IMG/VR virus record: IMGVR_UViG_2663763280_000002
Location: 1-4,142 of that record
DNA length: 4,142 bases
From: a virus
Taxonomy: Duplodnaviria; Heunggongvirae; Uroviricota; Caudoviricetes
Reading direction: 5' to 3' (one strand)
The notes beneath the pieces are model-generated. The model had not been told where the DNA came from. It did no database searches and worked only from the letters and a program-made list of their open reading frames with translations. Both the position numbers and the translations under genes were made by a program. The number at the start of each line of letters is the position of its first letter. The first letter of the stretch is position 1. Positions 1 to 4,142 of the stretch are shown here, piece by piece.

Positions 1-1
1 G

Positions 2-433
2 GCTGCCGGAGGCGCTCAACAGGATGACGTGCTGATGTACGTGATGCTGTGGCGCATTGATGCCGGAGATTATGCAGGGGCGCTGGAGATCGGGCGTCAT
101 GCCCTGCGTCATGGCTGGGTGATGCCGCTGGGTAACCGCAACGTGCAGACCGTGCTGGCAGAGGAAATGGCAGACGCGGCGCAGAGCGCAATGCTTGCCG
201 CCACCGGCTTTGATGCCGATCTGTTGCTGCAGACGCTGGAGCTGACAGACGGTCTGGATATGCCGGACCAGTCACGGGCGCGTCTGCATAAAGCGATTGG
301 CGCTGTCCTGAGTGAAAGCAACCCGGCTTCCGCCCTTAATCATCTCAACCATGCGTTACAGCTCGATCCTCGCTGTGGCGTGAAAAAAGACAAACAGCAG
401 CTGGAGCGCAGACTGCGCAATGACAGCCGCTGA
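2..433 (+). CDS. M: Terminase small (endonuclease) subunit, gpM-like, C-terminal part; 5' end lies outside the window
   Basis: The reading frame is open from the window edge with no in-frame stop before TGA 431-433. The first start codon in frame is GTG 29, but the frame continues upstream, so the gene is 5'-truncated by the window. Assignment rests mainly on synteny: it sits immediately upstream of the L-X-lysis-R block, as in the P2 late operon (N-M-L-X). No diagnostic motif was verified. Confidence 0.5.
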   Translation, partial: AAGGAQQDDVLMYVMLWRIDAGDYAGALEIGRHALRHGWVMPLGNRNVQTVLAEEMADAAQSAMLAATGFDADLLLQTLELTDGLDMPDQSRARLHKAIGAVLSESNPASALNHLNHALQLDPRCGVKKDKQQLERRLRNDSR

Positions 434-528
434 CAGAACGTGCCCCCGCGCACGGGCGGCACGGGGTGGCGAAAGGCACTGCCACATCAAAACCCCGTCC
501 ACCGCCCTCTATTTCAGGAGAAAGCAGC

Positions 529-993
529 ATGAAGTTTGTTGCGCCAGAACAGGCACCAGAACAGGCGGAAATCATCAGGAATACGCCGTTCTGGCCTGAT
601 GTGGACCTGTCGGAGTTTCGCAGCGTGATGCGCACTGACGGCACGGTGACGCAGCCGCGTTTAAAGCAGGTTGCGCTGTCGGCAATTTCGGAGGTCAACG
701 CAGAGCTGTATGAGTTTCGCAGACGCCAGCAGATGCTGGGGTATGCCTCGCTGGCAGAAGTTCCGGCGGAACAGCTGGACGGCAAAAGTGAGCGCATTCA
801 GCACTATTTCAACGCGGTTTACTGCTGGGCACGCGCCATGCTCAACGAACGATACCAGGACTATGACGCCACGGCGTCCGGTGTGAAGCGGGGCGAGGAA
901 CTGGCGGAAGCAAGCGGTGATTTGTGGCGTGACGCCCGCTGGGCCATCAGCCGGGTGCAGGATGCGCCGCACTGCACAGTGGAGCTTATCTGA
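529..993 (+). CDS. L: Head completion/stabilization protein, gpL-like
   Basis: ATG 529 is preceded by AGGAG at 516-520 (8-nt spacer). The GTG at 466 used by the ORF track lacks an RBS. Stop TGA 991-993 overlaps the next start by 1 nt (ATG 993). 154 aa. Position between M and X matches the P2 order. Confidence 0.7.
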   Translation: MKFVAPEQAPEQAEIIRNTPFWPDVDLSEFRSVMRTDGTVTQPRLKQVALSAISEVNAELYEFRRRQQMLGYASLAEVPAEQLDGKSERIQHYFNAVYCWARAMLNERYQDYDATASGVKRGEELAEASGDLWRDARWAISRVQDAPHCTVELI

Positions 994-1196
994 TGAAAGT
1001 GCGTGCGCATCAGTATGACACGGTGGACGCGCTTTGCTGGCGTCATTACGGGCGCACGCAGGGGGTCACGGAGCAGGTACTGAAGGCAAATCCGGGGCTT
1101 GCCGAATACGGCCCCTTTTTACCTCACGGGCTGCAGGTGGAGCTGCCGGACATTCCGACCACCACCACCGTGCAGACCGTCCAGCTATGGGACTGA
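993..1196 (+). CDS. X: Phage tail protein X, gpX-like
   Basis: 67 aa ORF with ATG 993 and TGA 1194-1196. Same length class as P2 gpX. The sequence pattern (YGRTQGV...VLKANPGLAE...LPHG..VELPD) matches my recollection of the tail X family. Translationally coupled to L. Confidence 0.75.
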   Translation: MKVRAHQYDTVDALCWRHYGRTQGVTEQVLKANPGLAEYGPFLPHGLQVELPDIPTTTTVQTVQLWD

Positions 1197-1199
1197 ATT

Positions 1200-1415
1200 A
1201 TGACGCTTGAGCGAATCAGCGCCTTTATCACGTATTGCATCGCCGTCGTGCTGGCCTGGCTGGGCGATTTGTCCATCAAGGATGCCTCAACGCTGGGCGG
1301 TCTGATGATTGGTGTACTGATGCTGGCTATCAACTGGTACTACAAACACAAATCCTACCTGCTTCTGCGCGACGGGCAGATCTCGCGGGAGGACTATGAA
1401 TCCATCAATCGTTAA
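1200..1415 (+). CDS. Small class II holin, possible pinholin
   Basis: 71 aa. Two predicted hydrophobic helices (approx. residues 6-22 ISAFITYCIAVVLAWLG and 31-49 TLGGLMIGVLMLAINWYY) followed by a charged C-terminal tail (KHKSYLLLRDGQISREDYESINR). ATG 1200 lies 3 nt after the X stop. The 3' end overlaps the endolysin start by 20 nt. It occupies the holin position of the P2 lysis cassette. Confidence 0.7.
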   Translation: MTLERISAFITYCIAVVLAWLGDLSIKDASTLGGLMIGVLMLAINWYYKHKSYLLLRDGQISREDYESINR

Positions 1416-1908
1416 ACGCTGCCTTGTCGGGGCCGTGCTGGCTATTGCTGCCACGCTGCCGGGTTTTCAGCAGCTTCACACCTCCGTGGAGGGGCTGAAA
1501 CTGATTGCTGATTACGAAGGCTGTCGTCTGCAGCCGTATCAGTGCAGCGCGGGTGTCTGGACCGACGGCATTGGTAATACATCGGGCGTCATTCCCGGCA
1601 AAACAATCACGGAACGACAGGCAGCAGAAGGGCTGATCTCCAACGTGCTGCGTGTGGAGCGGGTACTGGAAAGGTGTGTGAAGCAACTGCCACCACAGAA
1701 GGTGTATGACGCTACGGTGTCGTTTGCCTTCAACGTGGGGACGGGCAATGCCTGCAGCTCCACGCTGGTGAAATTGCTCAATCAGCGGCGCTGGGCGGAT
1801 GCGTGCCGACAGTTGCCGCGCTGGGTTTATGTAAAAGGTGTGTTTAATCAGGGGCTGGATAACCGCCGTGCGCGGGAGATGGCCTGGTGTTTACAGGGAG
1901 CAAACTGA
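1396..1908 (+). CDS. K: SAR-type endolysin, T4-lysozyme-like (GH24) muramidase
   Basis: ATG 1396 is preceded by GGGAGG (1387-1392). 170 aa. After K7-R8 the N-terminus has a weakly hydrophobic Gly/Ala-rich segment (CLVGAVLAIAATLPGF) typical of signal-arrest-release domains. The lysozyme catalytic region is DYEGCRLQPYQCSAGVWTDGIGNT (Glu41 ... Thr56). Cysteines at positions 9, 43 and 50 match the pattern of P1 Lyz-like SAR endolysins. Confidence 0.85.
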   Translation: MNPSIVKRCLVGAVLAIAATLPGFQQLHTSVEGLKLIADYEGCRLQPYQCSAGVWTDGIGNTSGVIPGKTITERQAAEGLISNVLRVERVLERCVKQLPPQKVYDATVSFAFNVGTGNACSSTLVKLLNQRRWADACRQLPRWVYVKGVFNQGLDNRRAREMAWCLQGAN

Positions 1909-1909
1909 A

Positions 1910-2287
1910 ATGAAAAAGAAATTAATCAGCGGACTGTTTCTGATGTTATGGATGGCGCTGTTAATCGCAGCAATGGTGTATCCGCAGGGGATTTTTCCGG
2001 TACTGGCAGCGTCCGGCGTTTGGGTAGCCTGTTTGCTGACATGGGCGGTAATTCCGGTAGCACTGGCTGCGTTAATTAAGAATGGCCCGCTCTGGCAGGA
2101 GTTAAGGGCATCTTTACTGAAGACAATTACCCGAAAAGAAAACGTATTTATCAGTTGGGTGATGCGATTGCTGATTGTTGTAAGTCTCGCCTGGACGGGG
2201 TGGGCTATTACCCTGGTCTTTTATCTACTGACCGTTATTGCCTTCTGGATCACCCGTAATCAGATGGCGCAACAGGTAGCAGCATGA
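1910..2287 (+). CDS. lysA: LysA-like integral membrane protein, lysis-timing accessory
   Basis: ATG 1910 is 1 nt after the endolysin stop (TGA 1906-1908), with GGGAG at 1896-1900 (9-nt spacer). 125 aa with about four predicted transmembrane helices. Located between the endolysin and LysB as in P2. The GTG at 1838 in the ORF track would overlap the endolysin by 70 nt and has no RBS. Confidence 0.6.
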   Translation: MKKKLISGLFLMLWMALLIAAMVYPQGIFPVLAASGVWVACLLTWAVIPVALAALIKNGPLWQELRASLLKTITRKENVFISWVMRLLIVVSLAWTGWAITLVFYLLTVIAFWITRNQMAQQVAA

Positions 2288-2712
2288 ACCGGTTGCTGCT
2301 GGTTGTGCTGGCGTTATTACTGGCGGCGCTGGGCTGGCAGACGTGGCGGCTGGCTGATGCCAGCCAGACCATTAGCACGCAGGCAGACGAGCTGCAGAGC
2401 AAAAGCCAGGCACTGGCAAAGAGCAACAGCCAGCTTATCAGCCTGTCCATTCTGACTGAAACCAATAACCGGGAGCAGGCGCGGCTCTATGCCGAAGCAG
2501 AACAGACCAGCGCGCTGCTGAGACAACGACAACACCGGATCGAGGAACTGAAACGTGAGAACGAGGATTTACGCCGCTGGACTGATACTCCTTTGCCTGC
2601 TGACATTATCCGGCTGCGGGAACGTCCGACGCTCACCGGAGGTGCAGCTTATCGTCAGTGGTTGTCCGCGAGTGACACCGTGTCGGCTGGATCAGGCAGA
2701 GCCGCGCACTAA
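2284..2712 (+). CDS. lysB: LysB, inner-membrane spanin (i-spanin, Rz-like)
   Basis: ATG 2284 overlaps the lysA stop (ATGA). N-terminal transmembrane helix (LLLVVLALLLAALGW) followed by a Q/A/E/R-rich, coiled-coil-like periplasmic region. 142 aa. Contains the out-of-frame start of the lipoprotein gene lysC. Confidence 0.7.
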   Translation: MNRLLLVVLALLLAALGWQTWRLADASQTISTQADELQSKSQALAKSNSQLISLSILTETNNREQARLYAEAEQTSALLRQRQHRIEELKRENEDLRRWTDTPLPADIIRLRERPTLTGGAAYRQWLSASDTVSAGSGRAAH

Positions 2713-2845
2713 CGGTGATCTGAACGCGTTGTTGGATGAAACGGAGGCCGCCTGGGCGGTCTGTGCAGACAAAGTGGACATGATTATTGCGTGTCAGGAG
2801 CAAAACAGTGAACAAACCACAATCCCTGCGCCACGCCCTCAATAA
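2555..2845 (+). CDS. lysC: LysC, outer-membrane lipoprotein spanin (o-spanin, Rz1-like)
   Basis: GTG 2555 with GAGGAA at 2541-2546. Signal peptide MRTRIYAAGLILLCLLTLSG followed by the lipobox Cys21 (L-S-G-C); the residue after the Cys is Gly, consistent with outer-membrane sorting. Pro-rich C-terminus (TTIPAPRPQ). It starts inside lysB in another frame and extends 133 nt past the lysB stop, which is the overlapped spanin architecture. Confidence 0.7.
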   Translation: MRTRIYAAGLILLCLLTLSGCGNVRRSPEVQLIVSGCPRVTPCRLDQAEPRTNGDLNALLDETEAAWAVCADKVDMIIACQEQNSEQTTIPAPRPQ

Positions 2846-3239
2846 AGCGGTGCCTTATGTCCGCAATAACCCGGACAAACTGCATCTGTTTGTGGATAAC
2901 GGTTCGCTGGTTGCCACGGGGGCCAGCTCCATGTCGTGGGAGTACCGTTACACCCTGAACGCGGTGATTGAGGATTTCAGCGGCGACCAGAATCTGCTGA
3001 TGGCCCCGGTTTTGCTGTGGCTGAGGGATAACCAGCCCGATGCCATCAATAACCCGGCGTTACGGGAAAAACTATTCACCTTTGAGGTGGATATTCTGCG
3101 CAACGATGTCTGTGATATCAGCCTGAACCTGCAACTGACGGAGCGTGTGCTGGTCAGCACTGACGGTAGTGTGTCGAGTGTTGAAGCTATAGCGGAACCT
3201 GATGAACCTGAAGAAATGTGGACGGTGAAACGTGGCTGA
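2808..3239 (+). CDS. R: Tail completion protein, gpR-like
   Basis: GTG 2808 with AGGAG at 2796-2800 (7-nt spacer); the TTG at 2787 used by the ORF track is less likely. 143 aa. The N-terminus ([10 protein letters not shown]...[14 protein letters not shown]) resembles P2 tail completion protein R as I recall it. Stop TGA 3237-3239. The last few codons lie at or near the junction with non-phage sequence, so the integrity of the C-terminus is uncertain. Confidence 0.7.
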
Positions 3240-3244
3240 ACTGC

Positions 3245-3511
3245 AGACTGATGCACTCACTGGCGGTCACTGAACAACGCGCCAGCTTCAAAGCGTGGAC
3301 ATTACTGCTGGCAATCAGTGCCTTCTCGTTGTGTCTGCTGGGGACTTTCCTGGTGCGTTCCGGCGTGCTGGTATCGGTACACGCGTTTGCCTCTGATCCG
3401 GCACGCGGTATGTTTATCCTCGCCTTTATGGTACTGGTGATTGGTGGTTCGCTGCTGCTGTTTGCCGCACGTGGACACAAAGTTCGCTCACGCGTAAACA
3501 ATGCGCTGTGG
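3245..3511 (+). pseudogene. ccmF: Internal fragment of a cytochrome c maturation heme lyase (CcmF/NrfE family); no start codon context and no native C-terminus
   Basis: Translation [88 protein letters not shown] matches my recollection of the CcmF/NrfE region just after the Trp-rich WWD domain, including a His that would be the conserved periplasmic His. About 90 of roughly 650 codons are present. The frame ends in KTGT-stop at 3524-3526, which I do not recognise as CcmF. Boundaries are approximate (about 15 nt). Confidence 0.6.
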
Positions 3512-3613
3512 AAAACGGGCACTTAGCGTGGCAAATTGCGCTACCGGGGCACAACGCTGACGCAGCGTAGCGAGCTGTCCTTCCAGTTTTTCCAGCAGCA
3601 GGGCGGTTTTCAC
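3512..3613 (-). pseudogene. priC: 5' fragment (about 34 codons) of a priC-like gene (primosomal replication protein N'')
   Basis: The minus strand reads GTG (3613-3611) then [34 protein letters not shown], preceded by GAGGT about 5 nt upstream and an AT-rich TATCAT-containing region. This resembles the N-terminus of enterobacterial PriC from memory. The frame then runs into the ccmF-like fragment and stops (PQRIVYA-stop). Identification is less certain than for the other fragments. Confidence 0.4.
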
Positions 3614-3897
3614 GATAAGACCTCAATGAAAATGATAATTGTTATGCTAAAGTAGCCACTCTGTAAGCTGACAACACTCAATATGCAACGAATCATTTTA
3701 ATCATCATGTTGAACTGGTACAGGCAACCAGCGGCACGCTGATGATTTTGCGCCATACCGCACCGCTAAGTTCGGCTGATCGCGAAAAACTGGAACGCTT
3801 TTCGCATTCTGAAGGCCTGGATCTGTATCTCGCCCCCGATAGTGAGATACTCGAAACCGTCTCTGGTGAGATGCCCTGGTATGACTCAAACGGGTTT
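3614..3897. other. AT-rich non-coding spacer between the divergent priC-like and rluD-like starts; origin unassigned, possible promoter sequences
   Basis: No recognisable coding signal; the ORFs here are short and unrecognised. Local AT-rich stretch around 3620-3720 (e.g. TATCAT about 25 nt upstream of the minus-strand GTG). This may contain native upstream regions of the flanking fragments, or a further unrecognised fragment. Confidence 0.3.
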
Positions 3898-4002
3898 ATG
3901 GCACAACGAGTACAGCTCACTGCAACGGTGTCCGAAAACCAACTCGGTCAACGCTTAGATCAGGCTTTGGCCGAAATGTTCCCGGATTATTCACGTTCGC
4001 GC
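3898..4002 (+). pseudogene. rluD: 5' fragment (35 codons) of rluD-like 23S rRNA pseudouridine synthase D
   Basis: ATG 3898 followed by [35 protein letters not shown], which matches the N-terminus (S4-like domain) of E. coli-type RluD as I recall it. After codon 35 the frame continues as [16 protein letters not shown]-stop (4051-4053), which is not RluD and corresponds to the antisense of the next fragment. Confidence 0.6.
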
Positions 4003-4142
4003 CAATCGTTCCCTGGCCAGCAATCACTTTCGGATCATCGTAAGGTGGGATAAAAATACGACCTTCCATTTCGACAATTTCGCTCACTTTAGCGATAGTG
4101 TCGTTGAAATTATCACCATGCAGAACGACTTCTGCGGAGTAG
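4003..4142 (-). pseudogene. tdcB: Internal fragment of a PLP-dependent threonine/serine dehydratase (TdcB-like), running off the window end
   Basis: The minus strand from 4141 downward translates to [47 protein letters not shown], which matches my recollection of catabolic threonine dehydratase TdcB (fold-type II PLP enzyme). Homology ends at about 4003, where the rluD-like sequence begins. About 46 codons are present. Confidence 0.6.

Follow-up and report, generated by a model that had tools for sequence, protein, structure and literature searches.

Does the open reading frame that runs from an ATG at 3742 to a TGA ending at 4053 on the plus strand of the window (the whole 4,142-nt stretch of DNA analysed here) encode a fusion protein, or does it only mark where unrelated DNA has been joined? 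The ORF listing of the window places the 103-codon frame exactly where the earlier note had put it, inside an enclosing open frame at 3667-4053, and its composition can be read off along its length. Residues 1-51 are identical (100%, BLASTP) to residues 203-253 of RlmD and are read in rlmD's native frame; residue 52 is a junction codon, TTT (Phe), in place of the native rlmD codon TTG (Leu); residues 53-87 match RluD residues 1-35 at 35/35 positions, with the third base of the last codon, CGC, contributed by the adjoining tdcB fragment; and residues 88-103 are read-through of antisense tdcB, closed by the stop codon at 4051-4053. BLASTP against native RluD returned nothing significant outside residues 53-87, the confinement that the earlier note had predicted, and the frame does continue through antisense tdcB to the stop codon it had named. 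The 52 upstream codons that it had called unrecognised and in frame by chance are indeed in frame with the rluD part, but residues 1-51 prove to be the RlmD segment in its own frame, and the rluD DNA, correctly spotted and placed at 3898-4002, in fact occupies 3897-4001, one base to the left.

Being read in its native frame, the rlmD part of the ORF is open, and the total length is unremarkable given that two of the three possible joining frames downstream of the rlmD piece stay open after 3896, for 48 and 51 codons. By chance the rluD fragment is joined in the same frame as the rlmD fragment, and by chance the antisense tdcB fragment offers no stop for 16 further codons. The ORF is an accidental read-through over three unrelated E. 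coli gene fragments and not a gene; it is one symptom of a larger, five-piece patchwork at 3248-4142.

The pieces of this patchwork were resolved by separate searches and by local alignments to the native loci. Positions 1-3247 (plus strand) hold the colinear late region of a P2-like prophage, identical to that of E. coli A28 at 3246/3247 positions (the mismatch lying at 1360), and attached to these 3,247 bp are 895 bp made of fragments of 264, ~195, ~190, 105 and at least 141 bp. Piece 1 (3248-3511, plus strand, 264 bp) is an internal stretch of ccmF, codons 259-346 in sense orientation, 263/264 identical to many genomes. Piece 2 (3512-3708, plus strand) is 197/197 identical to the native priC-ybaN region and comprises antisense priC codons 1-34, the 69 bp that separate priC from ybaN and, in sense orientation, the opening 26 nt of ybaN. 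Piece 3 (3705-3896, plus strand) is an internal, sense rlmD fragment, 192/192 identical, bounded by the third base of codon 190 and the second base of codon 254, which supplies ORF residues 1-51. Piece 4 (3897-4001, plus strand, 105/105 identical) spans -1 to +104 of rluD in sense orientation, with the rluD start codon at 3898, and its first 35 codons supply ORF residues 53-87. Piece 5 (4002-4142, minus strand, 141/141 identical) carries tdcB codons 119-166 and runs off the window end; read antisense it yields ORF residues 88-103 and the stop codon, and on its own strand a minus-strand ORF at 3917-4087 gives a weak Pfam match to PALP (pyridoxal-phosphate enzyme). The alignments show 3248-4142 to be a head-to-tail concatenation of five fragments from five distant E. 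coli loci, and the earlier note's description of the ORF as a non-functional fusion created by the joins is well borne out by the three fragments found abutted end to end within it.

The prophage segment to the left is itself unexceptional. Following the A28 prophage annotation, it contains the 3' end of the terminase endonuclease subunit gene (1-433) and the genes for head completion (529-993), tail protein X (993-1196), holin (1200-1415), lysozyme (1396-1908), a LysA-like product (1910-2287), LysB (2284-2712), LysC (2597-2845) and tail completion protein R (2808-3239), with only the first 16 nt of the virion morphogenesis gene S (3232-3247). The P2-type lysis cassette at 1200-2845 is intact, with holin, lysozyme, LysA-like membrane protein and the LysB/LysC spanin pair, and lysC starts inside lysB in another frame, an ordinary arrangement for P2-like phages. 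Two substitutions in the 4,142 nt are private to the window and could be strain variation or sequencing errors: the T at 1360 gives CTG (Leu) in the holin gene, against CAG (Gln) in the A28 prophage and in 95/95 aligned related viral contigs, and the A at 3469 turns a ccmF codon from GCG into the synonymous GCA, the best complete-genome match of that piece being 263/264.

The patchwork produces further frames and small features of the same kind. A second chimeric ORF of 102 codons (3218-3526, plus strand) starts out of frame within the end of gene R, reads ccmF codons 259-346 in frame with the native gene and terminates in antisense priC; its Pfam matches to CcmF_C and Cytochrom_C_asm are sub-threshold only, and an antisense ORF of 111 codons (3187-3522, minus strand) lies opposite it. 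At 3683-3742 (plus strand) the native ybaN start codon is kept together with the intergenic region upstream of it, and the 19-residue peptide that begins there consists of 8 native ybaN codons followed by out-of-frame rlmD. No known RNA family was matched at gathering thresholds; a small stem-loop lies at 3729-3741, 20 nt downstream of the rlmD breakpoint.

At each join, both native sequences were compared with the window without gaps. At every junction the native sequence diverges at once on the far side, with piece identities of 99.6-100%, and none of the five joins holds any filler, adapter, vector, linker or primer sequence. The partners have no bases in common at 3247|3248, 3511|3512, 3896|3897 and 4001|4002, and pieces 2 and 3 share 4 nt, TCAT (3705-3708). 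Random blunt joins are expected to leave 0 ambiguous bases with P = 0.56, and a set of five to include one or more joins with at least 4 with P = 0.076; the observed pattern of 0, 0, 4, 0 and 0 fits random abutment. An origin through restriction sites or proximity ligation was considered and rejected: a PstI site, CTGCAG, lies near 3241 and a CATG at 3706, and no site is common to the joins.

The patchwork was then sought in 5,426 complete E. coli genomes. Every one of them matches the interval 3200-4142, at a median of 5 separate places, and none (0/5,426) holds 80% or more of it in one place; the colinearity expected of a genuine gene was not found for the ORF locus in this set. The 105-bp rluD piece occurs in exactly one copy in each of the 5,426 genomes and forms the start of a full-length rluD at both native loci inspected. 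The source loci lie 0.15-2 Mb apart in a real genome, in mixed orientation: in strain 503025 the five short pieces are all present, none with more than 1 mismatch, at ~0.345, 2.29, 2.75, 2.90 and 3.28 Mb and in both directions, so that a single E. coli background can supply them all. A perfect match to all pieces was found in no genome of the set, which places the source strain outside these 5,426. No match was found for five 29-31-mers that span the junctions, each of them run against between one and three of three collections (viral, genome-representative and metagenome), and the mosaic is absent from the phage and plasmid records searched. As a positive control, the 38-mer ending at 3247 was recovered from at least 119 viral contigs, all of which continue into native gene S.

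Two records that carry the priC and rlmD regions, OR845175.1 and OR845296.1, were examined as a related patchwork or source and set aside as plain colinear host DNA. Both bear the title 'UNVERIFIED_ORG: Escherichia phage ...' and are SPAdes-style NODE contigs of 3.3 and 4.1 kb with a coverage of 3-4x. Over the stretches that the native loci cover, each is colinear with the bacterial chromosome (priC-ybaN-apt in one, barA-rlmD-relA in the other), and they look like host DNA, not phage.

Could the ORF nevertheless be a genuine, functional fusion protein gene? In its favour, the 103-codon frame is intact from ATG to stop and has the ybaN promoter region and start codon a short way upstream, and the TGA that closes the 19-codon peptide derived from ybaN shares bases with the ORF's ATG in the motif TGATG, an overlap that could permit coupled translation if the DNA existed in a cell, although it looks accidental. 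The encoded product speaks otherwise. A Pfam scan found no family in it that reached its own cut-off, and the S4 domain PF01479, which longer RluD fragments in the database do carry, was not matched even at E<=1. Only RluD residues 1-35 of 326 are present, which leaves the S4 domain cut, and PseudoU_synth_2 (PF00849), with its catalytic aspartate, is missing altogether, as the rluD DNA ends at +104 of the 981-nt gene and is followed by antisense tdcB. What RlmD (RumA) contributes is residues 203-253 of 433 with no Pfam match, a segment that in the RumA architecture presumably falls outside the TRAM domain, the Fe-S cysteines and the SAM-dependent methyltransferase domain PF05958. The predicted product, 51 mid-RlmD residues plus half of the RluD S4 domain, would thus contain no complete domain and none of the catalytic residues of RlmD or RluD.

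Nor do expression signals or homologues come to its aid. No Shine-Dalgarno-like sequence precedes the ATG at 3742, and since the rluD piece begins 1 base before its start codon, the native ribosome-binding site of rluD has been lost as well. The earlier note had held that alignment over the full length to a known protein family would overturn its reading; a search of 5.8 billion protein clusters returned no full-length homologue, coverage reaching at most 67%, and its matches fall into two non-overlapping groups, RlmD fragments (~50% coverage) and RluD N-termini (34%), with the tail left as antisense tdcB. The exact product has no record in the large public gene collection that was looked up. 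For practical purposes the fusion-gene reading is refuted, and its probability is close to nil.

How, then, did the patchwork arise? On present sequence evidence, it very probably originated by concatenation of fragments outside the cell, with the ORF at 3742-4053 an accidental read-through and not a gene; that the joins were made outside a cell, and not through bacterial recombination, is, from their anatomy and uniqueness, a conclusion we would hold with high confidence. Small DNA fragments may have been ligated blunt-end during library construction and sequenced as one molecule, or small contigs or reads may have been joined in silico without spacers, and the same anatomy would be expected of either. 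Chimeric molecules are documented to arise when libraries are prepared by ligation (PMC5600009, PMC13141652). What is found at the locus agrees with such an origin: pieces of near-100% identity extend to sharp breakpoints, the overlaps are those of random joins, and the junctions are unmatched in the collections scanned. Two observations point the other way, in that 2 private substitutions in 4,142 nt indicate very high quality, unlike a raw error-prone long read, and in that the adapter sequence often left at the joins of ligation chimeras is absent here.

The absence from public collections is also compatible with a rare, real, one-off rearrangement, in which homology-independent end joining would have repaired, in vivo, a double-strand break of the P2-like prophage a little way into gene S and taken up copies of five fragments of the chromosome (105-264 bp). 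The chimeric ORF would then be present in a living strain, still as a by-product. All pieces are compatible with one E. coli background, the sequence is clean, the genuine prophage on the left ends abruptly 16 nt into gene S, and one junction does show a 4-nt microhomology. Set against this, five successive captures within 0.9 kb would be unprecedented, the short pieces are contiguous in 0/5,426 genomes and no junction turned up in any collection scanned. Multi-fragment capture is not known as an outcome of illegitimate recombination in E. coli, a species not known to possess Ku/LigD end joining. For its illegitimate recombination E. coli depends on microhomologies of ~9 bp, as seen in the lambda Spi- assay (PMC11372144), and these are absent here, four joins sharing 0 nt and one sharing 4 nt, which leaves capture in a living cell distinctly improbable. 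Joins that are physically real and man-made would be expected of a laboratory construct, either a shotgun fragment concatemer beside phage DNA or a designed tile assembly, and blunt joins without filler would suit it, as would a ccmF piece of exactly codons 259-346 and a 105-nt rluD piece beginning 1 nt before the start codon. We considered these codon-exact bounds as a sign of design and rejected them, since the rlmD and priC-ybaN pieces are not codon-aligned and alignment of two pieces has a chance of ~1 in 9. The junctions bear no vector, linker, restriction-site or primer sequence, no plasmid record matches, and the orientations and positions follow no design logic, with one piece antisense and another spanning an intergenic region; a construct is very unlikely. 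An assembler mis-join through repeats or k-mers common to true genomic regions is rarer still in its prospects and must be regarded as extremely unlikely: chimeric junction contigs do exist, and the two 127-nt pieces of one of them, BGRG01000181.1, would suit junction k-mers at k=127, but the partners here share 0-4 nt, much too little for overlap-based or de Bruijn joining, so that the junctions must either have been in the input reads already or have been made by plain concatenation.

The preferred reading, concatenation outside the cell, is in line with comparable patchworks in public drafts. The E. coli draft contig CCBV01001618.1 (GCA_000936365.1, 1,955 nt) is a patchwork of rhaB-rhaA, rlmD, prpC-like and other pieces whose matches are scattered over 6 separate places (median) in complete E. 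coli genomes and are contiguous in none of them; its rlmD fragment is fused to a 2-methylcitrate-synthase-like fragment and has been called as a 144-aa ORF of RlmD/citrate-synthase family. BGRG01000181.1 (NCBI, 250 nt) consists of two 127-nt pieces, barA and rlmD, in an inverted join. We found no literature on the assemblies of the CCBV01 and BGRG01 patchwork contigs. A further patchwork, the metagenome contig Ga0597149_000146 (JGI 3300061153), comes from an enterobacterium other than E. coli. Over positions 1-1239 it is made of bamD-rluD segments of ~80-100 nt that recur 2-3 times, 100% identical and in either orientation, and the RluD N-terminus occurs twice in the 167-aa 'hypothetical protein' that it encodes. 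Its rluD piece (~-3 to +97) was considered as evidence of a recurrent breakpoint and dismissed as a BLAST-boundary effect between species: its rluD copies begin 8 nt or more before the ATG and stop short of where the piece in the window ends.

The rlmD breakpoints of the window and of BGRG01000181.1 lie closer together. That of the window falls at 3705-3709 and that of BGRG01000181.1 at its positions 121-130, equivalent to window positions 3708-3712, so that the two are 0-7 nt apart, and each shows a 4-nt microhomology (TCAT in the window, TGTT in BGRG01000181.1). No other protein-search match breaks at this place, the other partial matches being frameshifted or truncated native genes or chimeras broken elsewhere. 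The overlap with BGRG01000181.1 is probably a coincidence, with an estimated chance of 3-10%; it might hint at a preferred break site, which would weigh against the preferred reading.

The main value of these results lies in annotation hygiene. Neither the ORF at 3742-4053 nor that at 3218-3526 should be called a hypothetical protein, and the right-hand 0.9 kb of the window should be flagged as chimeric. Public protein collections already contain junction-spanning ORFs from other patchwork contigs, one labelled 'hypothetical protein', and the pattern seen here, namely short ~100% pieces of distant loci, blunt joins and junctions found nowhere else, can serve for excluding such sequences from family building. 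Biological interest would arise only if the joins were proved real in a cell: they would then represent a multi-fragment 'patchwork insertion' in living E. coli, for which there is no described counterpart in bacteria without Ku/LigD, and would leave a transcribable fusion ORF downstream of the ybaN promoter.

Set beside the systems it resembles, the locus shares sequence with two enzymes and its architecture with neither. RluD, the 23S rRNA pseudouridine(1911/1915/1917) synthase built of PF01479 and PF00849, is identical over its residues 1-35 to ORF residues 53-87; unlike RluD, the ORF has 35/326 residues, a cut S4 domain, no catalytic domain and no native ribosome-binding site. RlmD (RumA), the 23S rRNA (uracil1939-C5)-methyltransferase, is likewise identical over its residues 203-253 to ORF residues 1-51, and in contrast to that 433-residue enzyme the ORF has neither the N-terminal part nor any of the methyltransferase domain that follows residue 254. 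Illegitimate recombination and end joining in E. coli also join unrelated sequences without long homology, and one join of the window shares 4 nt; unlike the described pathway with its microhomology of ~9 bp (PMC11372144), four of the five joins share none. The closest likeness is to ligation and concatenation chimeras (White et al. 2017, PMC5600009; Xie et al. 2026, PMC13141652) and to CCBV01001618.1 and BGRG01000181.1, where unrelated pieces of one genome are joined directly. The window differs from the described nanopore artefacts, which are mostly two-part or inverted-repeat, in having five joins in 0.9 kb, and from the ligation and concatenation chimeras in having joins without adapter remnants; with the chimeras it has in common the random orientation of the pieces, joins that carry no biological signal, junctions unique to each record and spurious ORFs running across them.
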